Of a stretch of DNA of 51,705 bases, positions 4,209 to 41,958 are shown piece after piece. Position 1 is the stretch's first letter. Each line of letters begins with the position of its first letter. The stretch lies in NCBI GenBank assembly GCA_964521645.1, contig CAZFSB010000003.1, positions 1 to 51,705 on the forward strand. The letters run 5' to 3'. A model generated the notes under the pieces. The model was given only the letters and a program-made list of their open reading frames with translations. It was not told the origin of the DNA and searched no databases. This DNA comes from an uncultured Candidatus Saccharibacteria bacterium. GTDB taxonomy: Bacteria; Patescibacteriota; Minisyncoccia; Phycocordibacterales; UBA918. The position numbers were made by a program, and so were the translations under genes.

Positions 4209-4380
4209 ATCGACAGTTTCGGAAAGTATAGCACCCCTCGTTGCAAAATAATGACAAAACCGCTATACTCTTCCAACTTACGCTTTTGCGTAATAGTCGT
4301 TGCGCTGGTAAGGAAAGCTTGCCAGCGCTGCGCTCGAAACTAGAATATCCAAGCAAGCTTTGCTATTCTATTTCTCACTT

Positions 4381-4454
4381 GCGCTGGTAGCTCAACTGGT
4401 TAGAGCACCCGCCTGTCACGCGGGAGGTTGCGGGTTCGAGTCCCGTCTAGCGCG
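4381..4454 (+). tRNA. tRNA-Asp (anticodon GUC)
   Basis: GCGCTGGTAGCTCAACTGGTTAGAGCACCCGCCTGTCACGCGGGAGGTTGCGGGTTCGAGTCCCGTCTAGCGCG folds as a cloverleaf. TATACT at 4264-4269 is a candidate promoter. Confidence 0.9.
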
Positions 4455-4491
4455 CAAAATATAAAAATGTCCAACCTTGAGTTGGGCTTTT

Positions 4492-4692
4492 TTATTCTCG
4501 CTTCTCCAAAAACCGATACACCATAAGTGGTGCCCAGATCAGAAAGCTTGCAAACCCGACAATGAAGAAGGTTGGAATGAACTTAAAGAATTCTGATTCT
4601 TCGCCATCCAGAAACCAAAGGCTGAAGAGCGCCGTTGAGGCACACAGCAACATCGCCGTCCAAAATACTCGTAGTGAAATTTTTTCTATCAT
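4492..4692 (-). CDS. Small membrane protein (66 aa, two predicted TM helices)
   Basis: The ORF has two hydrophobic stretches. The hairpin at about 4470-4492 is shared with tRNA-Asp as a terminator. Confidence 0.45.
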   Translation of the reverse strand: MIEKISLRVFWTAMLLCASTALFSLWFLDGEESEFFKFIPTFFIVGFASFLIWAPLMVYRFLEKRE

Positions 4693-4772
4693 ACTATCTA
4701 CAACCGAAATAGCGGATCATAAGTTGCCAGACGATTCTCTGTCGACACAAAAAGCCCCGCAGGGCTTTTATT

Positions 4773-4920
4773 TGTGTCGACGGGAGGAATCGGTCACCTT
4801 CGCATCAGTATTTTGTTCGCACGCTCCAAAATACTGTGCTACGCGACCCCGGCGCTCGAATCGTACTCCCTACGGTCCGTGCGATATACTCGCTTCTTTC
4901 GATTCCTCATATCTCCAACA
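4773..4920 (-). ncRNA. tRNA-Met-derived structured element 'X' (tRNA-like 3' end, not a functional cloverleaf)
   Basis: Its last 20 nt (4773-4792) are identical to the tRNA-Met 3' end (4960-4979). It has a 10-bp hairpin at 4806-4836 and is bracketed by two terminator hairpins. Confidence 0.4.
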
Positions 4921-4959
4921 GTCATAAAAAAACCAACACAAGGTTGGTTTTTTTATGAC
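4921..4959. terminator. 17-bp A/T-flanked hairpin after tRNA-Met
   Basis: GTCATAAAAAAACCAAC-ACAAG-GTTGGTTTTTTTATGAC. Confidence 0.7.
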
Positions 4960-4961
4960 TG

Positions 4962-5035
4962 TGTCGACGGGAGGAATCGAACCTCCGACCCCAGCTTTAT
5001 GAGTGCTGTGCTCTAACCGTCTGAGCTACGCCGAC
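4962..5035 (-). tRNA. tRNA-Met, elongator type (anticodon CAU)
   Basis: The reverse strand GTCGGCGTAGCTCAGACGGTTAGAGCACAGCACTCATAAAGCTGGGGTCGGAGGTTCGATTCCTCCCGTCGACA folds as a cloverleaf. Its body resembles E. coli metT rather than fMet or Ile2. Confidence 0.85.
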
Positions 5036-5094
5036 ATACGTTAGGAGAAATATCCTAACTAGTGGCGCTAGAGTACACTATTTTCCCCACCGCT

Positions 5095-5799
5095 TCAATA
5101 GTTTTTTATTCGACCATGCCCACCGAGTGTATCGAGGATACGCTCGGCTTTTGCGATATCTTCAGGAAATCCGATCGGGATCCAAAGCTCCTGTTCTACC
5201 ACGGCGATCGGGTACTCTTTCGCATATTCTTCAATGACGTCAGTGAGGTAGAACTCACCATTCTTCTCTATTTTGAGCTCGTAATCAAAGATGTGTTCAT
5301 CGAGCACCATCACTCCGGTTGAGGCAAGGTTCGATGGTGGGTGTTCTGGTTTTTCGATCATCTGCGCCAAAGTGCCGTCAGGGTGACGCACCACGATACC
5401 AAAGCGTTCCGGATTATTGGTTGTAAGCGTAAGCATTGAGCGCGTATACGATGTGGCGCGCGCGATATCTTGCGCGCCATGAAGGTCATCGGCAAACATA
5501 AAGAGGAAACGCCCCTTGATCAAGTCTTTGCAAAGCCACAGCGCGTGCCCGGTCCCCTTTTGTTCAGACTGATGGACGTACGTTACTTTTCGTCCATGAA
5601 ACTCCTCCCCGCAGTATTCTTTGATACGATCTTCTAAGTAACCCGTAACAAGAATAAGTTCGTCAACCGCAGTGGGGAGCACTTCAACGATGTAATCCAA
5701 GAGTGGCTTCCCGGAGACTTTCACCAGTGGCTTAGGGATATTATCGGTAAGAGGTCGAAGTCGCGTGCCTTTTCCGGCAGCCAGAATCACACATTGCAT
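5095..5799 (-). CDS. Sugar-phosphate nucleotidyltransferase (G1P thymidylyl/uridylyltransferase-like)
   Basis: Starts MQCVILAAGKGTRLRPLTDNIPKPL (the GxGTRLxPxT motif). TGCTATACT lies 9 nt upstream. The longer track ORF would overlap a tRNA exon. Confidence 0.8.
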   Translation of the reverse strand: MQCVILAAGKGTRLRPLTDNIPKPLVKVSGKPLLDYIVEVLPTAVDELILVTGYLEDRIKEYCGEEFHGRKVTYVHQSEQKGTGHALWLCKDLIKGRFLFMFADDLHGAQDIARATSYTRSMLTLTTNNPERFGIVVRHPDGTLAQMIEKPEHPPSNLASTGVMVLDEHIFDYELKIEKNGEFYLTDVIEEYAKEYPIAVVEQELWIPIGFPEDIAKAERILDTLGGHGRIKNY

Positions 5800-5925
5800 A
5801 TGCTCGGTAGTATAGCAAAAGGCCGCGAGCTCGCCCAGTTTGGGAGCTTGGAAGGGGTTCACTTCCGGGCCCCGCATTTTATGAGCAAAGAAAAACACCG
5901 ACGTGAGGTCGGTGCTTTTCTTTGC

Positions 5926-6225
5926 TGGTTGCGGGGCCCGGAATCGAACCGGGGTCTGGAGGTTATGCGTACCACTATAACTTTCGTTACTCAAGCCTTG
6001 CTTGATTTGTTGGTCTGGACTATACCTTCATCTGTCTCTTTCGAGCGAAGATGCCTACCATCTAGTCTCTACACCTTCCCGCCACTGGCGGGCTTGGCTC
6101 GGTATTGCCATGTTCTCCTTTTGCAAGCGAACGAAGGTTTCACCGAATTTGGCAAGTGTTCCATAAAACATTTCTGTAGTATGAGCCCTCTTGAGCCTCC
6201 CGAGGTACCTCTCCTCTACCCCGCT
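5926..6225 (-). tRNA. Initiator tRNA-fMet (CAU) interrupted by a group I intron; exons 6225-6194 and 5967-5926; CCA encoded
   Basis: The exons join into a 74-nt cloverleaf, AGCGGGGTAGAGGAGAGGTACCTCGGGAGGCT|CATAACCTCCAGACCCCGGTTCGATTCCGGGCCCCGCAACCA. It has A11:U24 and a 1x72 mismatch, and its 3' end is as in E. coli fMet. Confidence 0.85.
5968..6193 (-). ncRNA. Group I intron (IC3-like), 226 nt, inserted after U33 of tRNA-fMet
   Basis: Contains CAAATTCGGTGAAACC, ATGGCAATACCGAGCCAAGCC, GAAGGTGTAGAGACTAGATGG and GAAGGTATAGTCC core strings. It is preceded by U and ends in G. Confidence 0.8.
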
Positions 6226-6304
6226 ATGTTTTTCCTTTTGTTTTGCTTAAAATACACACAAAACAGTACGTGGAAAATACACCATTTTTGACAGTTTGGC
6301 AAGT

Positions 6305-6928
6305 CTACAAAACCCCTAATTCAGCGAAAACTCGTTGGTAGCGAGCGATAGTGTCTTGTGCAATGCGTCTGGTGAGCACAAAATCTGCCCCGTCGTGGGC
6401 GATCCGATTGCGCACCTTATGGGCTTCCCAAGCGTCCTGAAGGGTGTTGAGTTGTTGGACTGAAACGTTCTTGAGTCGCTCCCCGAGCGAAGCTCCTGGA
6501 AATCCTTTTTGCTTGAGAGCTTCTTCTAAAATGATATCCGCTTCAATGATGGCCAGTTTCCAGTCGTTCGGATTATCAGAAGTGGAGTGCGTGAGTACGT
6601 CCTGTAATCGAGTACTTCGAACCACTCCCCGAAACTGCTCATCATAGAGACGTTCGGCATCACGGAGCATTTGCGTCTGCAGACCAGCGTACAAGTTTTT
6701 CTTTGTCGAAGCATACACGTACAAGAACAAAAGAATGATGGCGAAAATATATGCCAATACTGTGTAGATAGACCAGAGTGTCCCGAGAAAAGCGAGGATC
6801 GCAGTAAAAGAGAATACTGTAGCAAAACCACCAAACAGATCGCCAAACACTGAATCGGACCCGACAGAAACTCCGGGCATAGTTGGTCCTGAAGGGTTCG
6901 TTGGTGCAGGGGTGATGACTGGTTCCAT
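6305..6928 (-). CDS. Hypothetical membrane protein (207 aa)
   Basis: Two TM helices followed by a soluble domain. It starts 6 nt after the gatA stop, so is probably co-transcribed. Confidence 0.6.
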   Translation of the reverse strand: MEPVITPAPTNPSGPTMPGVSVGSDSVFGDLFGGFATVFSFTAILAFLGTLWSIYTVLAYIFAIILLFLYVYASTKKNLYAGLQTQMLRDAERLYDEQFRGVVRSTRLQDVLTHSTSDNPNDWKLAIIEADIILEEALKQKGFPGASLGERLKNVSVQQLNTLQDAWEAHKVRNRIAHDGADFVLTRRIAQDTIARYQRVFAELGVL

Positions 6929-6933
6929 AGAAG

Positions 6934-8361
6934 CTAGAGACCTGTATCGTAGATGCGCTTTCCGATCGCAAACAGTCGCGCGTCGCTACCAAGTGGTCCT
7001 ATGTATTGTACTCCAACCGGAAGCTGTTTACCGCCTTCTTCCACGGTTCCCATGGGGAATGAGAGAGCTGGCACACCCGCGAGGTTGACCGGGACCGTGA
7101 AGATATCCTGGCGATACATTGCGAGTGGATCTTCCTTTTCGCCGATCTTGAAGGCCGGGGTTGGAGCAGTGGGGGTAAGAATGATATCGACCTTCTTAAA
7201 AACGTCTGCTAGTTCCTGACGCATCTTCTTGCGTACCAGTTCAGCTTTTCCGTAGTAGGCGTCGTAGTAACCAGATGAGAGTACGTAGGTACCGAGAAGG
7301 ATGCGGCGTTTCACCTCCTTTCCAAATCCTTCGGCGCGAGTCTTCTCATACACATCGAGCAGATTGTCGCCGTCAGTCGATAGGCCGTAGCGGATACCGT
7401 CGTAGCGAGCGAGGTTGGAAGATACTTCAGCCGGCATCACGATGTAGTACGCCGCGAGTCCCTGTTCGAAGAGCGGCAATTCAATATCAATGACTTCGTG
7501 ACCGGCAGCCTTGAGTTCTTCTATGTGCGCGGAGAATTTTTGCAATACCTCAGCATCGACTCCTTCGGCGAGAAAATGGCGGGGTACTCCGAAGGTGTAT
7601 TTTTCTTTGAGTGGTGCTTCCGGGTACGTATCCTCCGTGATAGTGGTCGCATCCATTTTGTCGAGACCAGCCATGATGTTGTGCACCAGTTCGGCATCAG
7701 CGACCGAATTGGTAAGCGGGCCAGCCTGATCTAGTGAAGAACCCATCGCAATGAGTCCAAAACGCGATACCGCGCCGTAGGTCGGCTTGAAACCGACCAG
7801 CCCACAGTAGCTCGCCGGCTGACGAATCGAACCGCCGGTGTCGGTACCGATAGCGACCGGTACCGCTCCCATCGCGACCGCGGCGGCCGAACCACCTGAA
7901 GAACCGCCCGGTACCCGTGTCGTATCGACCGGGTTCTTGGTCGGACCAAAAGCAGAATTCTCGGTCGATCCACCCATGGCAAATTCGTCCATGTTGGTTG
8001 CACCCACCACGATCGCTCCTGCCGCTTTGAGCCGTTCAACGATCGTTGCGTCGTAGACCGCCACGTAGTTCTCGAGCATCTTGGAGGCAGCGGTCGTTCG
8101 CTTCCCTTTCATAAGAATGTTGTTCTTGAGCGCGATCGGTACACCAAGAAGCGCGGGGGTATCAGCCCCTCTTTCCTTGTAGAGTTGGTCGGCGGCTTTG
8201 GCCGCTTCGCGCGCGTCTTCGTAGACATCGAGAAAGGCGTGGATCTCACCGTCCTTTTCCTTGATCACGGCCAAAGCCGCCTCGACCGCTTCGGTCGGTG
8301 TGAGTGTCCCCGCGATGAACGCGGCGCGCAATTCAGTGACTGTTTTCATACTATTCGCCAA
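6934..8361 (-). CDS. gatA: Glutamyl/aspartyl-tRNA amidotransferase subunit A
   Basis: 475-aa amidase-signature protein (GGSSGGSAAAVA). It overlaps the gatC stop. Confidence 0.95.
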   Translation of the reverse strand: MANSMKTVTELRAAFIAGTLTPTEAVEAALAVIKEKDGEIHAFLDVYEDAREAAKAADQLYKERGADTPALLGVPIALKNNILMKGKRTTAASKMLENYVAVYDATIVERLKAAGAIVVGATNMDEFAMGGSTENSAFGPTKNPVDTTRVPGGSSGGSAAAVAMGAVPVAIGTDTGGSIRQPASYCGLVGFKPTYGAVSRFGLIAMGSSLDQAGPLTNSVADAELVHNIMAGLDKMDATTITEDTYPEAPLKEKYTFGVPRHFLAEGVDAEVLQKFSAHIEELKAAGHEVIDIELPLFEQGLAAYYIVMPAEVSSNLARYDGIRYGLSTDGDNLLDVYEKTRAEGFGKEVKRRILLGTYVLSSGYYDAYYGKAELVRKKMRQELADVFKKVDIILTPTAPTPAFKIGEKEDPLAMYRQDIFTVPVNLAGVPALSFPMGTVEEGGKQLPVGVQYIGPLGSDARLFAIGKRIYDTGL

Positions 8362-8647
8362 CGTCTAGGATCTTCTTCACTGATAAGAATCGACCTTCGG
8401 TCTTCGGCATTTCAGCCAAGATATCCTTGGTATATTGATCAGGCGTATTGATCACCTCATCCTGACGGAAAATATTGTGGCGAGCGCCCACCTGTGGGGC
8501 AGCATCGGCATCATCGGCGGCAATGTCACTAACCGCACTAACATACTCGACAATCGATGACAACTCCCCTTCTAGGTTAGTTAGTTCCTCCTCAGAGAGA
8601 CGGATCCTCGATAGTGTGGCCAAATGGGCGATTTCTTCTCGTTTCAT
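8351..8647 (-). CDS. gatC: Glutamyl/aspartyl-tRNA amidotransferase subunit C
   Basis: Reads MKREEIAHLATLSRIRLSEEELTNLEGELSSIVEYV. The ATG at 8659 in the track lies inside the TATGCT -10 box, so I prefer the second ATG at 8647. Confidence 0.8.
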   Translation of the reverse strand: MKREEIAHLATLSRIRLSEEELTNLEGELSSIVEYVSAVSDIAADDADAAPQVGARHNIFRQDEVINTPDQYTKDILAEMPKTEGRFLSVKKILDVGE

Positions 8648-8710
8648 GCGGGTTAGCATACCACTTGTGTGGTGAAAGTAAAAACCTCGAAACCGCTCCT
8701 TTGTACCACT

Positions 8711-8829
8711 AAACCATTTCCGACCATGTCGCCCTCCGGCGGGGCGACATTAACGCTTCGCCGAAGACTTTTCCTAGAAAAAGACCAAGCTCTTCGGCTC
8801 CAGAGTTTCGGAAATGGTTTAATGGTACA
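8711..8829 (-). ncRNA. Candidate structured RNA (three-way junction) in the ligA-gatC spacer, class unknown
   Basis: A 21-bp closing helix (8711-8731 with 8809-8829) is fully paired only on the minus strand, where it uses a G.U pair. It encloses hairpins GCCGAAGA...TCTTCGGC and ATGTCGCCC...GGGCGACAT. Confidence 0.35.
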
Positions 8830-9060
8830 CGGAGCGACATGTATTAAAAAGAGCCATTCAACAGCACCCTTCTTAGATCTTTCGCACCGCCAGATAACTG
8901 TCTTGCGGAAACATTGCGGAGAACGCGCTGCCGGTCAAAGCCGATGGCGAAGCTGTTCGAAGAACATCGGCTTTGAGCGCGTTCGAGCATAGCGCGCCAG
9001 CCGCAGGGCTGGCGACGCGTGTTTACACAGGATAGTTTTCTGGTGGTGCAGGTTGCACAA

Positions 9061-11711
<2,651 letters not shown>

Positions 11712-12953: not shown

Positions 12954-12968
12954 ATTGCATTATATACC

Positions 12969-13559: not shown

Positions 13560-13563
13560 TTGT

Positions 13564-15131: not shown

Positions 15132-15608
15132 CTATGGACACACAGTCGCGTTAGCGGCAAGTGGAGTTATTGTCTGTCCAGCATGTCCAGTTGAATCAAC
15201 ACACCAATACGAGACGTCAGTACCAACAGGAACATTCAATGGAGCCGAAATGACGTAGTATCCGGCAGCACTATGACAGTTTACCGTAGCATTTGTCTGC
15301 AGTGTTGCGAGAGCCGTAACTGGAGTTCCAGTTGTCTCAGCTCGGTTGTCGATGGCTGCTTGCATGAGATCTGTGATTGAAGGATCAGTACACACATCAG
15401 TGTAGGAGTACTGGTTAGCGCCTGCTTTATTGTAAACCAACTCAGCCTGTGAACGAGCGTTACCGATAGACTGCTTGATAGAAGCGTCCTGACCACCGTC
15501 ACGAGCGTCGTTGAGTGAAGCGAGCACTACGGCCGCCAAGATACCGATAATCGCGATCACGACGAGGAGTTCGATCAGAGTGAAGCCTCGCTGTAGAGTC
15601 TTTTTCAT
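15132..15608 (-). CDS. pilA: Type IV major pilin PilA
   Basis: Reads MKKTLQRG|FTLIELLVVIAIIGILAAVVLASLNDAR, with two Cys pairs in the C-terminal domain. Confidence 0.9.
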   Translation of the reverse strand: MKKTLQRGFTLIELLVVIAIIGILAAVVLASLNDARDGGQDASIKQSIGNARSQAELVYNKAGANQYSYTDVCTDPSITDLMQAAIDNRAETTGTPVTALATLQTNATVNCHSAAGYYVISAPLNVPVGTDVSYWCVDSTGHAGQTITPLAANATVCP

Positions 15609-26036: not shown

Positions 26037-26168
26037 ATTGCGGAGACGAGAGGATTCGGTCACAAGTCGCTCCCTCCGGTCGCGCTCGCGACCCCAGCTC
26101 GCCGACAAGCACTCCTCGCAAGCTCGTCGTCTTGTATACCGGCTCCGCTTTTCGAATCCTCTCGTCCC
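26037..26168 (-). ncRNA. tRNA-Ser-derived structured element 'Y'
   Basis: 26037-26058 is a 22-nt exact copy of the tRNA-Ser 3' end (26213-26234). 26153-26168 is its inverted copy, which forms a 16-bp closing helix. Internal hairpins are present. Confidence 0.4.
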
Positions 26169-26170
26169 AC

Positions 26171-26217
26171 GCAATAGCAAACCGCCGAAATGCATACGCA
26201 TTTCGGCGGGCTATTGC
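26171..26217. terminator. Compound hairpin after tRNA-Ser
   Basis: GCAATAGC-AAA-CCGCCGAAATGC-ATAC-GCATTTCGGCGG-GCTATTGC. Confidence 0.65.
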
Positions 26218-26303
26218 GGAGACGAGAGGATTCGAACCTCCGAGGGCTTTTAGACCCTGCCTCGTTAGCAGTGAGGTGCTTTCGACCACTCAGCCACGTC
26301 TCC
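26217..26303 (-). tRNA. tRNA-Ser (anticodon GCU), class II
   Basis: The reverse strand is GGAGACGTGGCTGAGTGGTCGAAAGCACCTCACTGCTAACGAGGCAGGGTCTAAAAGCCCTCGGAGGTTCGAATCCTCTCGTCTCCG. It has a long variable arm. Confidence 0.9.
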
Positions 26304-26318
26304 GTATTCTCCGAAATT

Positions 26319-26511
26319 GGAGACGTGGCTGGGGTCGAAAGTTCCTTTCGTCCTCCTTTCGCCTGTTTGCTACGCGAGCACTTCTTGTTTTCTAACTCGC
26401 AAGCTCGTAAGAAAACAATGTCGCGCAACTCACAACGGCGAATCCTGCCTTGACGGCAGGACCGGATGAATTGAGACGCAGGTCTCAATTCATCCACTCA
26501 GCCACGTCTCC
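26319..26511 (-). ncRNA. tRNA-Ser-derived structured element 'Z' in the 5' flank
   Basis: 26494-26511 is an 18-nt copy of the tRNA 5' end (26286-26303). 26319-26331 is its inverted copy. Internal 14-bp and 9-bp hairpins are present. Confidence 0.4.
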
Positions 26512-26698
26512 AAATTTCTCCAAATCCATTTCGATTGGTGCTGGAGAGAATACCATATTGACCAACAGTTACCAAGTCGTTTTTGTAATACCCTGGGTGC
26601 CCTCGATCTGTACTAGACAATATAAAGCCCGTGCTGTATAGTAGCTGCCCATCACAGGTTTGTGTGATGTTTTTGTTCTTTACAATAAAAGGAGAAGT

Positions 26699-33269: not shown

Positions 33270-33345
33270 ATGGATTTAGTATACGCCTCTGTGGTGATGG
33301 TGCAAGGCGGGCGGAGGCGAAGCCTCCGCCCGCCTTGAGGCAATG

Positions 33346-33369
33346 AAAAAGGCCGCGCTGCGCGCGGCC
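33346..33369 (-). terminator. Intrinsic terminator (minus strand)
   Basis: GGCCGCGC-GCA-GCGCGGCC followed by TTTTT on the minus strand. A second 15-bp GC hairpin lies at 33304-33336. Confidence 0.65.
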
Positions 33370-33691
33370 TAAGATCGGTTTGAAGTGGGGAGCACCACAT
33401 CAGGTGGTAAGCTTCTCTAGTCCACAGTATGGACACGGGCCCACCTAAGATATTCACCTCCTTTCAGGATGAAAAGCGTATGGTCATGACGGAACTTCCG
33501 GCGACTGAGCGATTACCCAAAATGAGTTTCATCACATTTCTCCTGAATTGGTTGTAGGTGACGAATGTTCACCCACTTACAGTAATACCGAAAAGTTAGC
33601 AGTTTGTAAATATCCCTCGGTGCAAACGTGGCTCCGGGGAGATTGAGACAACGGGCTGATTGCGCTATAGTGTCACACACCAACCAAATTT

Positions 33692-33726
33692 CCGCCTATA
33701 GCTCAGTTGGTAGAGCGCAGAGCTTA
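33692..33726 (+). pseudogene. Orphan 5' half of tRNA-Ile (ends inside the anticodon)
   Basis: 34/35 identical to 33803-33837. Identity stops after CTTA of the anticodon loop, and no matching 3' half follows. Confidence 0.6.
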
Positions 33727-33802
33727 CAGAATGAGCTGAGTGGAGAAAGAATTTATTCTTTCGAGTCACGAAGCGATATTCTGTATCAATTAAATCTTTT
33801 GT

Positions 33803-33875
33803 CCGCCAATAGCTCAGTTGGTAGAGCGCAGAGCTTATACCTCTGTGGTCCTTGGTTCGAGTCCAAGTTGGCGGA
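33803..33875 (+). tRNA. tRNA-Ile (anticodon UAU)
   Basis: CCGCCAATAGCTCAGTTGGTAGAGCGCAGAGCTTATACCTCTGTGGTCCTTGGTTCGAGTCCAAGTTGGCGGA folds as a cloverleaf. The anticodon loop is CTTATAC. Confidence 0.85.
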
Positions 33876-33892
33876 CAAAAGATTGAATTAGA

Positions 33893-33990
33893 TATACCTC
33901 TGTGGTCCCTGGTTCGCACCACAAGGGTATTTCCGAATTTATAGTCGGCTCATCGCCTCCTTAAATTCTAGGTCAATCCAAGTTGGCGGA
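33893..33990 (+). pseudogene. Orphan 3' half of tRNA-Ile with a 59-nt insertion in the T loop
   Basis: TATACCTCTGTGGTCCCTGGTTCG[59 nt]ATCCAAGTTGGCGGA. A further partial copy follows at 34008-34023. Confidence 0.55.
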
Positions 33991-34078
33991 CAAAAGATTG
34001 AATTAGATATACCCCTGCGGTCCATAAAGAAAAACAGTGCCTGCGCACTGTTTTTCCTTGGATTTTTGAAGCGGTCGG

Positions 34079-34945
34079 TTAGTTACCAAACAACCAACCC
34101 AAGAGTCCCCAACGGCCGATCGCCTTTTCTGCGACCTGGTCCAGTCGCTCTTGTTCTTGCAGCATTGTCTGCACTTGCTCTTCTAGCATTGTGCGCACTT
34201 CCTGGTCACACCCCTCGCACTCTGCTAAAAGTTGGTTCATTTCTTGGACACGAAGTCGATTCTGCTCTGCCTCATCTTTCAGGGCCTCTGCTTGCTCCTG
34301 ATCTTGACCAAAGAAGAAGGCTCGTAACCAACTGCGCTTTTCCAAAGCTTCCTCACGTCGCTCCATACCCTGGGCAGCTTGGTTCACCTGCTCGGCCATC
34401 TCACTCATCTGTGGTCCTTTTGGTCCGAGCATATCCTCGGCTGCTTGTACTGCCTGCACGGCAACCTGAGCCCGCTCACGCAGTGGGGTTCCCTCTTCAC
34501 CATTCTCTGCCCGCTGTGTTTGGGTTTGCACGCGCTCTTGTATGAATTGCTTAAGCTCATCAGGGGTCTGTACTCGCTCCTGCACCCGGGCTCGCTCCTG
34601 TTGCGCCAGTTCGCCACCAGCATTCTGCCCTGACGAAGCCTGTCCCCCGATCTGCTGACCATTAAGCGATGCCTGGTCTTGCTGCTGCACCTGCTCCATG
34701 GTCTGCTGACGCTGCTGTTCCTGCGTCTGTACAGCAGCATTTCCGGCCGCAGTGGTAGAACCAACTCCAGTCGGTTGATTGGTTCGGTCCTGGTCTTGGG
34801 CCTGGTTGCGATCTTGATCAGCGGTTGCACTACCACCCACATTTCGTTCTTGCTGCGCGTACGCAGCTGTCGCCAAAAGCATTACCGCTAGTAACGCGAT
34901 CATTTCAGCAATGACGACGAGTGTCATTTTTTTAGTCATACTCAT
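34079..34945 (-). CDS. Secreted Gln/Glu-rich coiled-coil hypothetical protein
   Basis: Signal/anchor sequence MTLVVIAEMIALLAVMLLATAAYA, followed by a low-complexity Q/E-rich region. Confidence 0.6.
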   Translation of the reverse strand: MSMTKKMTLVVIAEMIALLAVMLLATAAYAQQERNVGGSATADQDRNQAQDQDRTNQPTGVGSTTAAGNAAVQTQEQQRQQTMEQVQQQDQASLNGQQIGGQASSGQNAGGELAQQERARVQERVQTPDELKQFIQERVQTQTQRAENGEEGTPLRERAQVAVQAVQAAEDMLGPKGPQMSEMAEQVNQAAQGMERREEALEKRSWLRAFFFGQDQEQAEALKDEAEQNRLRVQEMNQLLAECEGCDQEVRTMLEEQVQTMLQEQERLDQVAEKAIGRWGLLGWLFGN

Positions 34946-35121
34946 TCTTTTTACATCTGCTAAGTTGCGCTAGGTGCTTCTTAGAAACTTTCCGAGACAT
35001 GTGCCAAAGAAGCACCGACATACACGTATTACTCTACTCCTCATCGCCAGGTTTGTATAGCACTCTGAACCCCGAATAACCTGACCACGTACTCCTACAT
35101 TGGTGGTACAATACGTCTAGT

Positions 35122-36627
35122 ATGAAAAAGATCTTACACCCTCGCCCCCTCTACATCACCATCACACTTATCGTCATCGCGTTCGTGATATCGATGATGT
35201 TGGGAGTGGGAAATTCAAATAAGACAGAGCTGGTGACGACCGTGGTTGAAGACGGCCCGGTTCGGCAGTTGGTTTCTGTTTCTGGTATTGCCGACGCGAA
35301 ACGTTCCGCGCAGCTCGCCTTCCCGACCAGCGGCATCGTGCGAGAAGTACGCGTCGAGACCGGGAGCGAAGTTGCCGCCGGCGACATTCTCGTCACTCTT
35401 GATAGGCAAAGCCTCGCTGCCGACAGACAAGAGGCAGTAGCGGCTCTCGCGCAGGCGAAAGCCAACTTAGCCGAATTGCAAGCAGGCCCGACCGTGACCA
35501 CGCGCGCTGTTTCGGAAGAAGCCGTGCTCACAAAAGAGATCGCTCTTAAAACTACGCGAGAAACCGAACAGCAGAAGATCGACAATGCGTACCGACTACT
35601 GCTCTCGAGCGACCTCACCGCCTACACCGACGACCTTTCCGAACAGGTGGATCCTCCAGTCATCTCCGGCACCTATCGCTGCGCTGAGGAAGGAACCTAC
35701 ACTCTTTCAGTGTATTCCTCCCAAGCTGATTCCGGCTACTCGTTCAATCTCTCTGGTCTAGAGACCGGCACCTACACCGCGGCTATCAAACAGCCCGGGC
35801 CACTCGGTGCCTGCGGCCTACAGATCACCTTCACTGAGGGAGACCGCTATACCAACTCCACCTGGCAAGTCGACATCCCTAATAAGCGCTCTAGTTCCTA
35901 CACGACCAACTACAACAACTACCTCCTAACGATGTCGCAAGCTGAGAACGCGATCGCCTTGGCGGAACAGGCGCTCGCCCTTGCCACTGCCGAGACGACC
36001 AACCAAAACGCCCCCGCCCGAGCGGAAGCGGTCATTCGCGCCGAAGCCGCCGTGACTCAAGCTACTGCCCGACTCGCACGCGTTGACACCGCGATCAGAG
36101 AGAGCACTCTTACCGCCCCCTTCGCCGGGACAGTCATTACCGTGGCTGTTCTCCCTGGTGAAACTGTTTCCACCGCACCAGTGGTCACCTTACTCGCCAG
36201 TGACGAATTTGACGTTAAGGCGCGCATCCCAGAGATCGACATCAGCAAGCTAGTCACTGGGCAGGCGGTAGAGATGCTCTTTGATGCCCGCACTACCGAG
36301 ATCATAACCGGAGTGGTGACGTTCATTTCCCCTGAGGCAACCGTGATCGATGGGGTCGCCTACTATGAAGCCACCATCACCTTCGACGACATGCCCGCCT
36401 GGATGCGCAGCGGACTCAATGCCGATATCGATATCATCATCAATCAAACTACCGAAGAACTCCGTATCCCCAAGCGTTTTCTCATCAAGACCGACACTGG
36501 CTACGAAGTCTTGCAAAAGCGCGGTGAGATCATCGCCACCACCACAGTGGATCTGGTACTCGAAGGAAATGATGGCTTTGTGGCAATTACTGGCCTAAAA
36601 AGTGGCGACACCCTGGTCGCTCCCTAA
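35122..36627 (+). CDS. HlyD/MacA-family membrane-fusion (periplasmic adaptor) protein
   Basis: N-terminal TM helix, a lipoyl-like motif AGDILVTLD, and coiled-coil and beta-barrel regions. TGGTACAAT lies 9 nt upstream of the ATG. Confidence 0.8.
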   Translation: MKKILHPRPLYITITLIVIAFVISMMLGVGNSNKTELVTTVVEDGPVRQLVSVSGIADAKRSAQLAFPTSGIVREVRVETGSEVAAGDILVTLDRQSLAADRQEAVAALAQAKANLAELQAGPTVTTRAVSEEAVLTKEIALKTTRETEQQKIDNAYRLLLSSDLTAYTDDLSEQVDPPVISGTYRCAEEGTYTLSVYSSQADSGYSFNLSGLETGTYTAAIKQPGPLGACGLQITFTEGDRYTNSTWQVDIPNKRSSSYTTNYNNYLLTMSQAENAIALAEQALALATAETTNQNAPARAEAVIRAEAAVTQATARLARVDTAIRESTLTAPFAGTVITVAVLPGETVSTAPVVTLLASDEFDVKARIPEIDISKLVTGQAVEMLFDARTTEIITGVVTFISPEATVIDGVAYYEATITFDDMPAWMRSGLNADIDIIINQTTEELRIPKRFLIKTDTGYEVLQKRGEIIATTTVDLVLEGNDGFVAITGLKSGDTLVAP

Positions 36628-36630
36628 CCT

Positions 36631-37878
36631 ATGCGCTTGCTCCGCATCGGACTTCTCCTCGGCTGGCGACAGATCCAGCGCGCTAATAAGTGGACGACGC
36701 TCCTCATTATTTCCGTGATGATGCTCACCTTCCTCAACCTCATCGCGGTGTCAGGAGTTTTGGTCGGACTCATTGCAGGAGCCGAGCGGGCTGTGCGAGC
36801 TGAGTCACTTGGTGACCTCATTCTCAGCGAGCGCGATGATGAAGACAATATCATCGAGACAGAGACCATCATGCGCGAACTGGCCGCCTACCCGGAGATC
36901 GATGCGTACTCGGTACGATATGGTGGCGCCGCCGAGCTTGAAGCAAACTACAAAGAACGGCGCAGCCTCACTGCCGAGCGTGATGTTGCCGCGGTCAAGG
37001 TGACCGGCATCGATCCCTTCCTTGAAGACACCATGTCTGGCCTCAGTCGCAATGTGCTAAAGGGAGAGTACCTCGACCCAAACGAAGAAGGTCACATACT
37101 GATCGGCTACTACTCCCTCGAAGAGTTCGCCGAACAGTTTGGTGACATCTTTGACACCATCGCCAACGTCGAGCCCGGCGACACCGTTCGCCTGACGGCC
37201 GGGACGATCTCAAAGGAATTCATCGTGAAAGGTATCGTGCAATCAAAGGTAGACGAGGTCTCCCTCAACACGTACATCCCCGAACGCGAATTTCGTCGCC
37301 TCTTTGGTCGCCTCGACCGTAATGCCGACCAGATCGTCATTCGCATGAACCCAGGAGAGTCTGAAGACGAGCTCAAGGCCGCCTTTGTCGCCAACGGGAT
37401 GGACAAGTACGCGAAGATCCAGACCTACGAGGAAGGCAAACCAAAATTCATCACCGATATCAAGAACACCATGAACTTGCTCGGCACCTTCATCGGCTCG
37501 ATCGGTATCGTCGTCGCTTCCATCACCATTTTCATCATCATCTTCATCAACGCCATCTCCCGTCGTCAGCAGATCGGCATCCTCAAGGGCATCGGTATCG
37601 AACGACGAGCCATTGAAATTGCGTATGTGTTTCAGGCTTCCGCGTACGCGCTCATTGGTTCGGGTCTGGGCGCCCTGCTCACCTACGGCTTCCTCATTGG
37701 CTACTTTGAACGAAACCCCATCCCATTCCCCTTCAGCGACGGTATTTTGGTGGCTCCGCCAGAGGAGACCTTCCTTCGCTTTGTCACCCTCTTTGTCGTT
37801 ACCCTCATCGCCGGCTTCCTCCCCGCGTGGCTCATTGTGCGGCAAAATACCCTTAGTTCGATCTTAGGAAGAAAGTAA
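36631..37878 (+). CDS. ABC transporter permease, FtsX/MacB-like
   Basis: TM1, a large extracytoplasmic domain, and three C-terminal TM helices. Confidence 0.85.
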   Translation: MRLLRIGLLLGWRQIQRANKWTTLLIISVMMLTFLNLIAVSGVLVGLIAGAERAVRAESLGDLILSERDDEDNIIETETIMRELAAYPEIDAYSVRYGGAAELEANYKERRSLTAERDVAAVKVTGIDPFLEDTMSGLSRNVLKGEYLDPNEEGHILIGYYSLEEFAEQFGDIFDTIANVEPGDTVRLTAGTISKEFIVKGIVQSKVDEVSLNTYIPEREFRRLFGRLDRNADQIVIRMNPGESEDELKAAFVANGMDKYAKIQTYEEGKPKFITDIKNTMNLLGTFIGSIGIVVASITIFIIIFINAISRRQQIGILKGIGIERRAIEIAYVFQASAYALIGSGLGALLTYGFLIGYFERNPIPFPFSDGILVAPPEETFLRFVTLFVVTLIAGFLPAWLIVRQNTLSSILGRK

Positions 37879-37879
37879 T

Positions 37880-38566
37880 ATGTCAATCATCACAGCCAAA
37901 AATATTCAGCGATCATTCGGCGAAGGAGACCTCCTCACGCACGTTCTCAAGGGTATCGACCTGACAGTCGAGACCGGAGAATTCATCGCCATCATGGGAA
38001 AATCGGGAGCGGGCAAGTCGACACTGATGTACCAGCTTTCTGTACTGGACGAACCCACCGAGGGTGAAGTAATTGTTAATGGCGTCGATGTACTGAAGTT
38101 GAACGAACGTGAGCGCACCACCTTCCGGCTTAATACCCTGGGGTACATCTTTCAAAACTACGCACTGGTACCCGACCTCTCCGCGCTCGAAAATGTCATG
38201 CTCCCCCTCCTCATGCGCGGCCTCCCGTGGGAAGATGCCAAAGTGGTGGCGCGCAGCGTGATCGATAGCGTGGGGATGATCGGTAAATACGAAAACCTAC
38301 CGGCCGAACTTTCGGGCGGTGAGCAGCAGCGCATCTCGATCGCACGCGCTGTTGCGGGTAAACCAAAGATCCTCTTTGCCGATGAACCAACTGCCAATCT
38401 CGACAGCATCTCTGGCCAACAGGTGATCGACCTGATGACCGAGCTCAATCGCAACTACGGACAAACCATCGTCATGGTGACGCACGAACGCGAATATGCC
38501 GATAACTGCAATCGCATCATTCACATGGAAGACGGGGTCGTCGTGCACGAGGAGCGGTTACGATAA
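37880..38566 (+). CDS. ABC transporter ATP-binding protein (MacB/LolD-like)
   Basis: Contains GKSGAGKST, LSGGEQQR and ILFADEPT. Confidence 0.9.
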   Translation: MSIITAKNIQRSFGEGDLLTHVLKGIDLTVETGEFIAIMGKSGAGKSTLMYQLSVLDEPTEGEVIVNGVDVLKLNERERTTFRLNTLGYIFQNYALVPDLSALENVMLPLLMRGLPWEDAKVVARSVIDSVGMIGKYENLPAELSGGEQQRISIARAVAGKPKILFADEPTANLDSISGQQVIDLMTELNRNYGQTIVMVTHEREYADNCNRIIHMEDGVVVHEERLR

Positions 38567-38608
38567 AAAGTAAAAGGCGCTGACCTTACGGTCCGCGCCT
38601 TTTACTTT
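38567..38608. terminator. Bidirectional terminator between the ABC operon and ftsH
   Basis: AAAGTAAAAGGCGC ... GCGCCTTTTACTTT. Confidence 0.7.
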
Positions 38609-38611
38609 TCC

Positions 38612-40732
38612 CTACACCAATTTCGTCTTCTGCTCATCCGGCCGAACTTCAAGTCCACGGGTCGGGTCCCCGACTCGAGCATCTTCTTTATACATGTCAG
38701 CGTACGCGTCTTTCATCTCGACGCCGTACTGCTTCAAGAGCGCCTCGTACTCCTCTCGTTCTAGCGTCTCCACTTCTACCAATCGCTTTGATATCTCATC
38801 GAGCGCCGGGCGGTACTTGGTCAGTATCTCTCGTGCCTTTGCTTTTCCTTCCTCGATGAATCGAGTGACTTCTTCATCAATCAATTTTGCGATCTGAGCA
38901 GAGTATCCGCGGTCCTCAGAAAGTCCGCCGCCAATCAATCGGCCTCCGGTTGCCTCAAAGGCGACCGGGCCGATCTTCTCGCTCATACCGTACTTGGTCA
39001 CCATGTCGCGCGCGAGACCAGCGACCACTTGTAGGTCATTGGAAGGCCCGGTCGAGAGGTCTCCAAAGACCATTTCTTCGGTCACGTAGCCACCGAGCGT
39101 CATCGCAATGTCATCGAGGAACTCTTTGCGAGTGTGCATGCGACGGTCCTGGTCAGGCAACTTGAGTGTATAGCCAGCCGCGCGACCACGGGAAATGATG
39201 GATATCTTCTGGACTGGGTCAGCGTACGGTAGTACAGAAGCGACGAGCGCGTGCCCCACCTCGTGGTACGCGGTCACCAGTTTCTCATGCTTCGAGAGCA
39301 CGTGACTCTTGCGTTCTGGTCCAAGCATCACCTTCTCGATCGAACGAATGATATCAAACTGCCCCACTTTCTTGCGCTTCTCACGGGCGGCTAAGATGGC
39401 CGCTTCGTTCATCAATGAGTAGAGATCAGCACCAGAGAAACCAGGAGTTCGCTGCGCGATGATCTCAAGATTCACATCCTCCTGCAGCGGCTTCTTGCGC
39501 GCGTGCACCCTTAATATTTCTTCGCGGTCCTTGCGGTCAGGGAGGTCAATGGTCACGCGACGATCGAAGCGTCCCGGACGAAGGAGGGCTGGGTCGAGCA
39601 CGTCGGGTCGGTTGGTAGCGGCCATGACGATCACTTTCGCGTTTGGTTCAAAGCCGTCCATTTCGACGAGGATCTGGTTGAGTGTCTGTTCACGCTCATC
39701 ATTACCACCACCCATGCCCGTACCACGCACCCGTCCGACAGCGTCGATCTCATCAACAAAGATGATCGCGGGGGCGGCTTTCTTTGCCATTTGGAAAAGG
39801 TCTCGCACGCGCGAAGCGCCCACCCCGACAAACATCTCAACGAATTCAGAACCAGAGATAGAAAAGAATGGCACCCCGGCCTCGCCAGCGACCGCGCGCG
39901 CGAGCAGGGTCTTACCAGTTCCCGGCGCACCCATCATCATGACGCCCTTCGGGATCTCCGCACCGATGTCGAGGAATTTCTTTGGATTCTTGAGGAAGTC
40001 AACGATCTCTTCCAGTTCTTGCTTCGCTTCTTTTGCCCCGGCGACGTCCTTGAACGTGACCTTTTGTGCCGTGTCATTCGGGTCGATCATGCGCGCCTTA
40101 GAGGAACCAAAATTCAGTGCCTGCATCCCAGCGCCCTTTACCGAACGGGTGAAGAACCAAATGATCACACCAAGGAGAATAAGCGGGAACAAGAATGGTG
40201 CGAACTGTCCAAACCAGTACATGAAGCCAGTCTCGCGCTGCACGTCGATAGTGATCGCGGACAACTCTTCAGCGGTAACGCCGAGATTGGTGAGCGATTC
40301 AGTCACTGAAGCATCCACTTCACGTTTTGCTTCCCCGACTGTCCTGGTCTCATCCTTATAACTCACCTCTAGGGTGGCGCCACGAACAACGATAGTATCC
40401 ACCTCGCCCGCTTTGACCTGCCCTACCACATCTGTGACGGTAAGCTGTTCTGGTTTGACCTGGTTCTCAGTGAGATATGAGAAGACCGCTGTCACGAAGA
40501 TGAGCAGCAGCAGGGTCGAGAGCATGTTGTTCCAGAAATTGCCTGGCCCAACGGGCAAGCGCTTCCCGGTCTGACGCAGGTCGAGCATCGACTTCTTGTC
40601 AGCCGCGGGCTTTGGAATGGGCTTTGGCTCTGGTCGTTCTTCTTCTGGCTTCGACACTTGTTCCTCCCCTGTTGGGGCCGGGGTCGACGCGTCTTTTTCT
40701 TTATTTTGTTCAGTGTTTTCAGGATTGTTCAT
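38612..40732 (-). CDS. ftsH: ATP-dependent zinc metalloprotease FtsH
   Basis: Has AAA+ Walker [12 protein letters not shown], and the HEVGHAL zinc site. The start MNNPEN at 40732 has TATAAT 9 nt upstream. The track ORF extension overlaps smpB. Confidence 0.95.
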
Positions 40733-40801
40733 AGTAGGGCTATTATACAGAAATCGCCTTAATACGCCACAGTTTACGTGCTTGTGAAAGACACCCATCG
40801 T

Positions 40802-40810
40802 TGCTAGAGT
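40802..40810 (+). promoter_or_regulatory. Extended -10 TGCTAGAGT, 9 nt upstream of the smpB ATG
   Basis: TTGCTAGAGTAAAGCACAC-ATG. Confidence 0.45.
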
Positions 40811-40819
40811 AAAGCACAC

Positions 40820-41266
40820 ATGAGCACCTATATCCAAAACCGAAAAGCCCGTTTTGACTTCGATATTCTCGAAACCTTCGAGGCGGGTTTGGTGCTGCAC
40901 GGTTTTGAGGTAAAGGCCATCCGTCAGAGCAAGGGGAAGCTGGAGGGGGCGTATGTAGTGGTCCGGGGCGGCGAGGCATATCTGGTTGGCGCCAGCGTAA
41001 GCCCCTACCAGGTCATCAATACGCCGAAAAGCTACGACCCAGAACGAGTACGCAAGCTCCTTCTCTCCCAAAAAGAGCTTGCGCACCTGGAGCGCCAGAC
41101 CGAAACCGCTGGATTGACAGCTATCCCACTTCGATTGTATAATGCTGGCCGGAACATCAAGCTTGAGCTCGCGATCGCGCGCGGTAAAAAGAAGTTTGAT
41201 AAGCGCGAAACGCTCAAGGAACGTGATACCAAGCGTGATATCGATCGTACGTTGAAAGGTCAATAA
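40820..41266 (+). CDS. smpB: SsrA-binding protein SmpB
   Basis: Reads IQNRKARFDFDILETFEAGLVLHGFEVKAIR with a basic C-terminal tail. It is followed by ssrA. Confidence 0.95.
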   Translation: MSTYIQNRKARFDFDILETFEAGLVLHGFEVKAIRQSKGKLEGAYVVVRGGEAYLVGASVSPYQVINTPKSYDPERVRKLLLSQKELAHLERQTETAGLTAIPLRLYNAGRNIKLELAIARGKKKFDKRETLKERDTKRDIDRTLKGQ

Positions 41267-41346
41267 TAATTATGTACACCGTTCCCGCAGTGCGTACGGG
41301 CGGAAATTTTGGCAGGCTTGCCAAAATTTCCGCCCGCTCCTACCGC

Positions 41347-41753
41347 GGGGATGCTAGGCATCGACGGTCAGTCGTGTCGGATGTGTGCAGTGCCGAAAAC
41401 TGGTAATCAATTCGTTAAAAGGTTCCAACTTGTACGTGCAGACAAAGCACTACCAAGCCCTTACGCTCGCGCGTTTGGGTTCGCTCCCGCATTTGCGTAA
41501 TCTTACGCTCGCCGGATCGATGCTCCGCTCATAAACGTCTCATACGTGAGTCGGGGTAGAATAGACACGAGACTGTGGAGACCTTTGCCGTTGTCATAGG
41601 TTTTCAAGATTGTAACAACTCGAGACCGTAGTGTTTGGTTAATCTTCTAGCTACGGCCTTTAAACAGAAGCAATTCTGACAAAGGCTAACTACGCACTGT
41701 AGACTCACCTTCGCACCCTGATTCGGACGGGAGTTCGATTCTCCCCATCTCCA
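41347..41753 (+). ncRNA. ssrA: tmRNA (SsrA), standard one-piece; tag ADKALPSPYARAFGFAPAFA
   Basis: The 5' GGGGATGCTAGGCATCGACGG pairs with the 3' CATCTCC-A (G3.U70). The T arm is GGGAGTTCGATTCTCCC. The in-frame tag GCA GAC ... GCA TTT GCG TAA runs 41438-41500. Confidence 0.85.
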
Positions 41754-41793
41754 CTCGTAATAATATTAGCGCCATTTGGCGCTTTTATTATTT

Positions 41794-41958
41794 GAGTGGA
41801 GATGAAGAAAACAAACTGCTTTGCTTTCGTCGGGAATTGAACGGCGGAGCGTTGTCATGAGCGCGCTTCCTAGCGCGAGTGACCGCGAGCCGTGTCCCGC
41901 GGTCGTTATGAACGTAGTGAATTACGAACCGACAGGACAATTCCCGTCATCTCCACCA
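41794..41958 (+). ncRNA. tmRNA-end-derived structured element 'W'
   Basis: GAGTGGAGATG (41794-41804) is the inverted copy of the tmRNA 3' end. CATCTCCACCA (41948-41958) is a direct copy. CGGGAATTG pairs with CAATTCCCG as a closing helix. Confidence 0.35.

Follow-up and report, generated by a model that had tools for sequence, protein, structure and literature searches.

Stable RNA genes of the window and their flanking elements

The window analysed here, a stretch of 51,705 nucleotides (contig CAZFSB010000003.1 of GenBank assembly GCA_964521645.1) from an uncultured Candidatus Saccharibacteria bacterium, contains seven stable RNA genes identified with ARAGORN and Rfam: two for tRNA-Thr and one each for tRNA-Asp, tRNA-Met, tRNA-Ser, tRNA-Ile(TAT) and transfer-messenger RNA (tmRNA). 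The subject of this report is a set of structured elements beside these genes, of which four are designated X, Y, Z and W, together with their counterparts in other Saccharibacteria. The arms of each element are direct and inverted copies of an end of the neighbouring RNA gene.

Element X (4773..4960, minus strand) adjoins tRNA-Met(CAT) (4961..5035, minus strand; called by ARAGORN, 65 bits with the Rfam tRNA model) and copies its 3' end in an exact direct repeat of 20 nt (4773-4792 = 4960-4979). Along the minus strand it consists of a terminator with a 20-bp stem (4962-4918), an inverted arm (4908-4898, GAGGAATCGAA), a body (4897-4793) that carries a tip hairpin (4836-4806), and the direct arm (4792-4773). 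Element Y (26037..26215, minus strand) adjoins tRNA-Ser(GCT) (26216..26303, minus strand; ARAGORN and Rfam), the 3' end of which is copied in Y as an exact repeat of 22 nt (26037-26058 = 26213-26234) and the 5' end in Z. Its minus-strand order is terminator (26209-26182), inverted arm (26175-26151; matched at 26151-26166 and continuing to 26175 with one indel), body (26150-26059) with the tip motif CGAGCTTGCGAG (plus-strand position 26115-26127), and direct arm (26058-26037); the palindrome centred on the terminator at 26182-26209 has arms of about 41 bp. A second terminator hairpin, overlooked in the initial annotation of this DNA, closes both X (4769-4750) and Y (26035-26003).

Element Z (26304..26516, minus strand), recognized by its repeats and fold, is a unit on the 5' side of tRNA-Ser. 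It contains an exact 18-nt copy of the 5' end of that tRNA (nt 1-18) at 26494-26511 and an inverted copy at 26319-26331 that extends to 26346; along the minus strand, the direct copy is followed by a hairpin (26495-26464), further hairpins including one with the tip motif (26418-26385), the inverted copy, a 15-nt spacer and the tRNA. Element W (41755..41958, plus strand) lies directly behind the tmRNA gene (41347..41754, plus strand; ARAGORN and Rfam) and contains a 17-nt copy of the tmRNA end with 82% identity (41738-41754 versus 41940-41956) and an inverted arm at 41794-41811. It is made up of a terminator (41768-41783), an inverted acceptor arm (41794-41805), a hairpin called P2 (approximately 41806-41829), an inverted T arm (CGGGAATTGAAC, 41831-41842), a body, and the direct arm AATTCCCGTCATCTCCACCA (41939-41958). 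At each of X, Y, Z and W, the gene end, terminator and inverted arm form one long palindrome, and pairing of the inverted with the direct arm closes a fold that is branched and GC-rich.

The initial annotation had described this layout downstream of tRNA-Met, tRNA-Ser and tmRNA, and every repeat that it listed is present, with the inverted copy between the gene and the direct copy; the stable RNA genes, too, lie at the places it gave. The mirror-image layouts that it drew from 5' ends are equally real: the 18-nt tRNA-Ser copy in Z, and TTGCGCTGGTA at positions 4300 and 4379 beside tRNA-Asp. An exact 13-mer, CTCGCAAGCTCGT, is common to Y (26115) and Z (26396), and X has TCGCACGCTC at 4817-4826, one mismatch from that 13-mer, in the loop of a 10-bp stem.

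A common plan in related genomes

The closest genomes to that of the window are Saccharibacteria, members of the Candidate Phyla Radiation (CPR); the protein encoded beside tRNA-Ser is 87% identical to that of Candidatus Elulimicrobium. A comparison set was assembled from 80 syntenic Saccharibacteria loci around the nucleotidyl-transferase gene that adjoins tRNA-Met, plus three loci around tRNA-Ser (loci are given as L numbers). With BLASTN, X, Y, Z and W gave only self matches and tRNA ends in the window and the first loci, and no dispersed copies; the family is visible only through its architecture and through covariance models.

Prevalence was counted in the window and 75 related loci for the 198 tRNAs with at least 300 nt of downstream sequence. 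The ends of each tRNA were searched for in its own flanks, a direct copy being an exact match of at least 12 nt within 350 nt downstream, and the same probes were searched on the wrong side of the gene as a control. Direct copies of the tRNA's own 3' end lie 70-320 nt downstream of 51 of the 198 tRNAs (48 if at least 15 nt are demanded); inverted copies of at least 10 nt are found at 43, and the full order of gene, inverted copy and direct copy at 38. The wrong-side controls yielded nothing (0/215 and 0/198). The 3'-end copy begins within the T loop or immediately before it and lies at a median distance of 149 nt from the gene; 42 of the 51 copies extend all the way to the 3' end. End copies are carried by tRNA-Asp, tRNA-Met, tRNA-Thr, tRNA-Ser and tRNA-Ile, and the 70-320 nt enclosed by the direct repeats contain no open reading frame (ORF). 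By these counts the layout is common in these genomes and no peculiarity of the contig.

Fifty distinct elements follow one plan on the tRNA-sense strand. A terminator usually comes first. Next come the complement of the acceptor 3' strand with two or three trailer bases, a P2 hairpin (loop CTGC or YGGGR), a segment complementary to the T loop and the 3' strand of the T stem, a branched body of two or three helices, and finally a verbatim copy of the tRNA from T loop to 3' end, extended by 2-3 trailer bases. Bodies are 90-130 nt long and whole elements about 130-200 nt. Inverted and direct arms are perfectly complementary, trailer bases included; the inverted arms complement the 3' copy (GTCGACG) and are not copies of the tRNA 5' strand (GTCGGTG). 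The helix that closes the unit reproduces the stacked acceptor and T stems of the neighbouring tRNA, its 'top half', with the body in place of the T loop. X is without the P2 hairpin and has a degenerate acceptor arm, and no terminator separates the unit from the preceding tRNA-Met in L077 and L080.

The bodies fall into at least four types with common modules. Type A, to which X and Y belong, reads GCGGAGC..GCGAG.CGGGGTCGNG..hairpin..GTGACC, and type B reads ..GATTGAG..hairpin..CAATTGGGGTACTGAA-NNN-GTA-NNN. Type C has CACGAGAGTGACC at its end. The sequence TTATGAACGTAGTGAATTA is found in type D, which includes W, an element that is also type A-like. Invariant junction bases (GTACTGAA, GAA, GGGGT and GTGAC) are common to units of different tRNAs and different genomes, and bodies are conserved among genomes with 74-87% protein identity at the neighbouring gene.

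Homology, fold, strand and position

Two alignments were used to assess the fold: A1, of type B (18 sequences, 36 pairs), and A2, of type A (15 sequences, 37 pairs), which includes X and Y; Y was also placed in a third alignment, A3. Covariance model R1 represents type B, and R2 a trimmed type A core of 12 sequences with Y in the seed and X and W left out; E-values for both models are rough, owing to a quick calibration. R2 matches W at 41829-41948(+) with 42.7 bits (E 6e-9) and X at 4782-4910(-) with 31.4 bits (E 1e-5), and gives its seed member Y 72.7 bits; R1 reaches W (22.4 bits) and, weakly, Y. Since R2 was built without X or W and finds both, X, Y and W are homologous, and they are members of a Saccharibacteria-wide family of tRNA-linked structured units. 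Z is matched by neither R1 nor R2; it and the tRNA-Asp element described below are 5'-side variants with other bodies, and Z is supported by its shorter orthologue in L001 and by the 13-mer tip in common with Y. The initial annotation had named uniqueness to this contig, with no homologues or covariation, as the outcome that would undo its proposal; both homologues and covariation are present in relatives.

In A1, 94.2% of cells are paired, compared with 69.9% in column shuffles and 32-49% when partners are slid. Changes on both sides are seen in 30 of the 36 pairs, and none of 500 shuffles reaches the observed values. Closing helices 1 and 3 of A1 are 86% and 93% paired, and the same helices occur in A2, in which 29 of the 37 pairs have changed on both sides. 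The fold is specific to one strand. On the sense strand, G.U outnumbers A.C in paired cells by 39:5 in A1 and by 22:9 in A2. The loop motif that the initial annotation had found in X, Y and Z is genuine and generalizes to a tip, GA-NN-loop(3-4 nt)-N'N'-GA, which occurs 35 times in the sense and twice in the antisense orientation, against 12 +/- 3.4 in shuffles; the motif as first described, GAGCTTGCGA in the sense direction, is a close variant of this GA tip with a shorter loop and is not included in the 35.

Of the 95 strongest model hits, 66 start no more than 120 nt after a tRNA on the same strand, 15 are second or third units of arrays, and the remaining 14 lie mostly at contig ends or behind tRNAs missed by ARAGORN; all strong hits are co-oriented with the tRNA. 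One hit appears to be solitary, and it is the only clear case: a type B-like body (L001 4063-4191; 46 bits with R1) in a 750-nt gap between ORFs with no tRNA nearby. A type B-like body is also found upstream of an initiator tRNA-Met, preceded by a copy of the 5' end of that tRNA (L014 3822-3939).

This evidence points to selection acting on a single-stranded fold read in the direction of the tRNA, most simply RNA. A fold acting as RNA is suggested by the covariation, the G.U pairs of the sense strand, the RNA-type tips and loops, the junction bases, the co-orientation with tRNAs, and the units of L077 and L080 that are preceded by no terminator.

Polymorphism of the units at the DNA level

Comparison of orthologous tRNA loci, proposed in the initial annotation as a search for empty sites, revealed them. 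The tRNA-Ser site of L003 is empty on both sides of the gene; in L001, in which tRNA-Ser is identical to that of the window (100% over 96 nt), Y is absent and Z is short. The shorter orthologue of Z in L001 (9085-9182) keeps the pairing of the first hairpin with a different sequence. Copy number varies even between the near-identical L014 and L015, which have one and three identical 162-bp units, respectively, with a repeat of 47 nt that includes the terminator. Arrays of two or three units are present in L015, L023, L029, L062, L064 and L080, whereas the copies of the window are single. The order of units in L062 is A,B but that in L023 is B,A'',A, although the tRNA-Asp genes are identical and the distal flanks similar. 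Closely similar type A bodies are found at tRNA-Asp in L009 and at tRNA-Met in L018, in each case with arms that match their own tRNA. The tRNA-Asp gene itself varies among Saccharibacteria in its orientation relative to tRNA-Met, with a spacer of about 50 nt to more than 2 kb (L005-L084, after the nucleotidyl-transferase gene), so this tRNA cluster is a site of inversions and insertions.

The tmRNA locus

Relatives of the tmRNA locus were reached through SmpB homologues 83-89% identical to the SmpB of the window, for which an exact-sequence look-up returned no record. No W-like unit was found at the tmRNA of these relatives, except a truncated one in L087 and L088. The two arms of W pair with each other, and the inverted arm CGGGAATTGAAC mismatches the T arm of the adjacent tmRNA (GGGAGTTCGATTCTCCCC), which is unlike that of close relatives; the functional tmRNA of relatives ends in ACGGGTTCAATTCCCGTCATCTCCAC, which equals the distal arm of W and the flank that follows it. 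The truncated unit of L087 and L088 has the reciprocal mismatch. Because the arms of W match each other and not the gene, and the reciprocal case exists, pairing inside the unit is what is maintained. Identity of a unit to the neighbouring gene is frequent, yet it is breakable by recombination.

Two versions of the tmRNA T arm are in circulation, GGGAGTTCGATTCTCCCC and ACGGGTTCAATTCCCGTC (window 41725-41754 versus 41939-41958; L087 3990-4030). The occurrence of units of one version beside genes with the other implies recombination between lineages inside the tmRNA locus. In three genomes, a conserved stretch, (G)ACATAGAAATATGTAGAAATACAT, follows the ancestral tmRNA end.

W is followed by a low-GC (41%) island of 1.5 kb (41959..43439, plus strand) that ends in a third, partial copy of the tmRNA end, GATTCTCCCCATCTT at 43425-43439, which had escaped the initial annotation. 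The two larger ORFs of the island have no Pfam match. Gene cassettes that carry no integrase are taken up at the tmRNA 3' end in L088 and L091 as well as at this island. By comparison with L087, L088 has a Gp49/HTH toxin-antitoxin pair of about 790 bp inserted exactly after ...CATCTCCAC, and L091 has a 0.9-kb YceI island between copies of a 36-nt tmRNA-end repeat.

Leader modules, tRNA-Ile and other features of the window

The tRNA-Asp leader module (4300..4380, plus strand) is conserved in relatives upstream of Met, Asp and Thr tRNAs, and 14 of its 21 pairs covary among 18 aligned loci. Hairpin 1 (4302-4328) is a copy of tRNA-Asp nt 1-9 with its perfect complement and the invariant bases G-TAAG..CTT-C; hairpin 2 lies at about 4346-4375. 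The sequence CATTT or CACTT precedes both the module and the tRNA, and at tRNA-Asp both sites read CACTT. Two promoter-like sites may serve tRNA-Asp, one upstream of the module (4241-4269) and one inside it (4319-4346, TTGCCA-16-TAGAAT); given the latter, the module may overlap a promoter rather than be pure leader RNA.

Partial copies on both sides of tRNA-Ile(TAT) (33691..34026, plus strand; gene 33803-33876), missed in the initial annotation, form a duplication pattern plainer than X, Y or W. A 36-nt copy of the 5' half lies upstream (33691-33726), and downstream the 3' half is copied with a break in the T loop (33894-33916 ... 33977-33991), along with a repeated 22-nt trailer (33877-33898 and 33992-34013) and then the start of a third copy. 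This tRNA is kept in L001-L003, and L001 has the same arrangement (15330-15520).

An initiator-type tRNA-Met(CAT) of the window (5938-6240, minus strand), not called by ARAGORN, is split in its anticodon loop by a group I intron at 6001-6203 (Rfam RF00028, 54 bits). The initiator tRNA-Met of many relatives, among them L005 and L014, is uninterrupted and 72 nt long, and that of L064 has an intron at the equivalent place. The proteins encoded around the RNA genes of the window are ordinary cellular ones: SmpB, FtsH, nucleotidyl transferases, a GGDEF protein and a histidine kinase.

Comparison with E. coli RtT

No known Rfam family was found in the units, either at the gathering score on the window or at E<=1 on six element-rich loci, and neither ARAGORN nor the Rfam tRNA model RF00005 called a cloverleaf on any unit. 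Literature searches on tRNA-linked elements in Saccharibacteria returned nothing relevant. The impression that the elements resemble no described family nevertheless needs correction, as the RtT repeats of Escherichia coli (RF00391) have the same layout. The Rfam RtT model finds four copies in E. coli (NC_000913.3), with scores of 133-138 bits over 130-nt matches that begin with GGGGAAGGAT, an inverted copy, and end with ATCCTTCCCCCACCACCA, the 3' end of tRNA-Tyr from the T loop onwards; the Rfam consensus pairs GGGGAAGGAT with ATCCTTCCCCCACCACCA. Like the units, the 178-bp RtT repeats of the tyrT-tyrV locus lie downstream of a tRNA, are co-oriented with it and end in a copy of the tRNA from T loop to 3' end, which pairs with an inverted copy about 100 nt upstream; both have a GC-rich branched body with a GAGCGAAAGCGAG-type tip, and both are tandemly repeated (four copies in E. 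coli).

The differences are also considerable. The Saccharibacteria units have the extra P2 hairpin, at least four body types and 5'-side versions, and they are found at many tRNAs and tmRNA, usually after an intrinsic terminator, whereas RtT is known at one locus type, in enterobacteria. Unlike RtT, the units have no encoded CCA, because the tRNA genes of Saccharibacteria themselves lack CCA. The RtT model matched nothing in the window at its gathering score (45 bits), nor at E<=1 in the six element-rich loci, and R1 and R2 found no match on the E. coli RtT locus. With the same layout but no model match, the units are classed as working like RtT but outside RF00391. Among tRNA-linked repeats of the RtT kind they form a new variant, large and diverse, in a phylum without such annotation. 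For one repeat unit of the tyrT operon, an encoded RNA named rttR has been reported (PMC3318445); a role is ascribed to it in the processing of tyrT transcripts and, probably, in the stringent response (bioRxiv 10.1101/2024.07.17.603846).

Comparison with mobile and tRNA-like elements

Integron cassettes and the ends of CTX prophages are laid out as target copy, cargo, inverted copy, loop and target copy. The attC sites of integrons and the folded attachment site (attP) of CTX phages resemble the units in this arrangement of site copy, cargo, inverted copy, variable loop and site copy, in conservation of structure more than sequence, in arrays of different units, and in a fold on one strand. 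Unlike them, the units have no linked IntI or Xer-type gene, their cargo is at most a terminator, their target is the end of a stable RNA gene, and they contain RNA-type loop motifs. Their boundaries read GTTCGA../..TCGAAC instead of the attC core GTTRRRY / RYYYAAC.

The attachment (att) sites of integrative elements that target tRNA and tmRNA genes, and of their integrase-less derivatives, the cis-mobilizable elements (CIMEs), have direct repeats of the gene's 3' part starting in the T loop, as the units do; they too keep the displaced original 3' end distally, and they are stacked at tmRNA. The units differ in being 100-290 nt long without genes, and in having conserved covarying bodies, an inverted arm and 5'-end versions. 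The repeat of the tRNA 3' end that marks an att-bounded integrated element is present at the units, but no integrase-bearing element lies between the repeats.

Neisseria intergenic mosaic elements (NIMEs), flanked by dRS3, and the mosaics of repetitive extragenic palindromic (REP) sequences known as bacterial interspersed mosaic elements (BIMEs) are similar in their short variable segments, repeats of about 20 nt and recombining arrays, but their repeats are generic sequences, not copies of the end of an adjacent gene, and are not tied to tRNA genes. The tRNA-like domain of tmRNA, the 3' tRNA-like structures (TLS) of viruses, and minihelices share with the units an acceptor/T-stem stack in which the rest of the tRNA is replaced, and they are likewise potential substrates of RNase P, RNase Z and the CCA-adding enzyme. 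In the units, in contrast, the T loop itself is replaced, the helix extends beyond the discriminator and into the trailer, and there is no evident identity set for aminoacylation. Two other identities were dropped: a TnpB/omega-RNA-like scaffold and guide, as no nuclease gene lies in the vicinity and the 'guide' takes part in base pairs within the unit, and a retroelement primer-binding site in the inverted arm, as no reverse-transcriptase gene is nearby.

Proposed origin and function of the units

The reading that we favour, at roughly even confidence, is of RtT-like structured units that probably act as RNA, bear a cap mimicking the acceptor/T-stem stack, and multiply and reshuffle by recombination at the repeated tRNA ends. 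The fold would be made as RNA in the tRNA direction, in a read-through or trailer transcript for 3'-side units and as part of a leader for 5'-side units. On the model of E. coli rtT, the tRNA-like end may allow RNase Z or exonucleases, RNase P and the CCA-adding enzyme to cut out an RNA of about 130-170 nt. The repeated tRNA ends, of 19-47 nt, are recombination substrates, which accounts for the duplication, loss and reordering of units and for their exchange between strains. A crossover in the conserved T loop might give a body the end of another tRNA, and the sharp unit boundary there suggests such a point of exchange. In the cell, the units could mimic uncharged tRNA or a substrate of processing enzymes. 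Among the three explanations offered in the initial annotation, tRNA-minihelix mimics fit best, given the acceptor/T-stem closing helix, the covarying fold and the tRNA-sense strand, although the function itself is put forward here by analogy.

Several observations weigh against this reading. A strong intrinsic terminator separates the tRNA from most units and no promoter of their own was found, so their expression would depend on read-through. Truncated and decayed units are common, as expected of selfish or neutral DNA. Processing does not need arms identical to the neighbouring tRNA, and recombination or insertion of DNA would explain this identity more naturally, as a by-product; compensatory change and tolerance of G.T are also expected if the fold acts as single-stranded DNA. 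The link of the units to RtT is architectural only, and the function of RtT is itself unsettled.

The terminators, the decay and the unneeded identity keep alive a rival of the attC/CTX type, which we consider possible but doubtful: the units may be miniature, non-autonomous integrative cassettes, in which the fold is a single-stranded DNA recombination site whose stem mimics the double-stranded end of a tRNA gene, and in which a recombinase supplied in trans inserts the units at the 3' ends of stable RNA genes. Besides the shared layout, this would account for the arrays of different units at one tRNA and their differing order between relatives, for the empty sites, and for the presence of one body subfamily at tRNA-Asp (L009) and tRNA-Met (L018) with arms matching each; the strand bias of the fold would fit a single recombined strand, and integrase-less gene cassettes bounded by tmRNA-end copies do exist at the tmRNA 3' end. 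Those gene cassettes (L088, L091 and the island of the window), however, lack such a fold at their ends. None of the approximately 95 units has a linked recombinase gene; integrase domains were absent from the tested neighbour proteins and from the called genes of the tmRNA loci, although not every ORF of the window was scanned for recombinases. The attC-type core is missing at the boundaries; the conserved junction bases, the tandem G.A tips and the GAA, GNRA or CUUG-type loops look like RNA motifs; and homologous recombination at the 19-47-nt repeats could on its own explain duplication and reshuffling. The type B core pattern has a single match in the viral contig collection, a 2.6-kb IMG/VR contig (L086 592-614).

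That the units are stacked att scars, functionless attL/attR remains of larger tRNA- or tmRNA-targeting elements deleted to a few hundred bases, is improbable. The direct repeats do run from T loop to 3' end, the region in which tyrosine integrases reportedly commonly cross over in tRNA genes, and the three end copies and low-GC island of the tmRNA locus, the 0.9-kb island of L091 and the decayed units are all in keeping with such an origin. This proposal, made in the initial annotation, is partly right at the DNA level, as seen in the empty sites, arrays, reshuffled units and tmRNA island; what it leaves unexplained are the conserved bodies with their many compensatory changes, which scars would not produce, and the absence of an integrase beside any of the approximately 95 elements. 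Only four of the 198 tRNAs have a further end copy more than 350 nt away, and none of these encloses an integrase. The inverted arm would have no role, and the 5'-side units (Z, the leader modules and L014 3822-3939) do not suit integration at 3' ends.

We give little credence to an origin as neutral by-products of replication, in which terminators are extended into palindromes by template switching and partial tandem duplications arise by slippage in the T loop. Such events are suggested by the single long palindrome formed by tRNA end, terminator and inverted arm (about 41 bp at Y, and also at X, W and Z), by the perfect complementarity of inverted arms to the 3' copy down to the trailer bases, by the plain tandem partial duplications at tRNA-Ile, and by changes in copy number between near-identical strains. 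They would create neither conserved bodies of 90-130 nt nor the P2 hairpin nor invariant junction bases, and the covariation and strand bias indicate selection on the fold. A transposon resembling a miniature inverted-repeat transposable element (MITE), with the tRNA end as a long target-site duplication, was also among the original proposals and is very improbable: although the units are small, ORF-less, multi-copy and flanked by direct repeats of the target, they have no terminal inverted repeats at their ends, the repeats are variable (11-47 nt) and exceed known duplications by far, the inverted arm lies internally and copies the target instead of the other end, and the window has no dispersed copies of similar sequence.

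A broader and more speculative possibility, which we hold to be unlikely as a whole, is that RtT and the units constitute one general class, so far unrecognized, of self-propagating 'tRNA-end-capped' cassettes, in which the structural copy of the host's acceptor/T-stem serves twice: as RNA, to hijack tRNA-processing enzymes, and as DNA, to recombine into the ends of stable RNA genes. Recombination might use the folded single strand without a linked recombinase, and the ends in Saccharibacteria would also capture gene cassettes, as at tmRNA.

Implications

The genomes of Saccharibacteria are smaller than 1 Mb, yet approximately a quarter of the sampled tRNA genes carry at least one of these folds of 130-200 nt, and the units make up a large, unannotated share of the non-coding DNA. 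They can mislead genome annotation as false att sites, pseudo-tRNA ends and island boundaries, and they mark the ends of tRNA and tmRNA genes as frequent sites of recombination in Saccharibacteria. The long-unexplained RtT of E. coli now has a structural counterpart from a distant phylum; this family is far richer in members and in natural variants, and it opens the function of RtT to comparative analysis and, in cultivable strains, to experiment.

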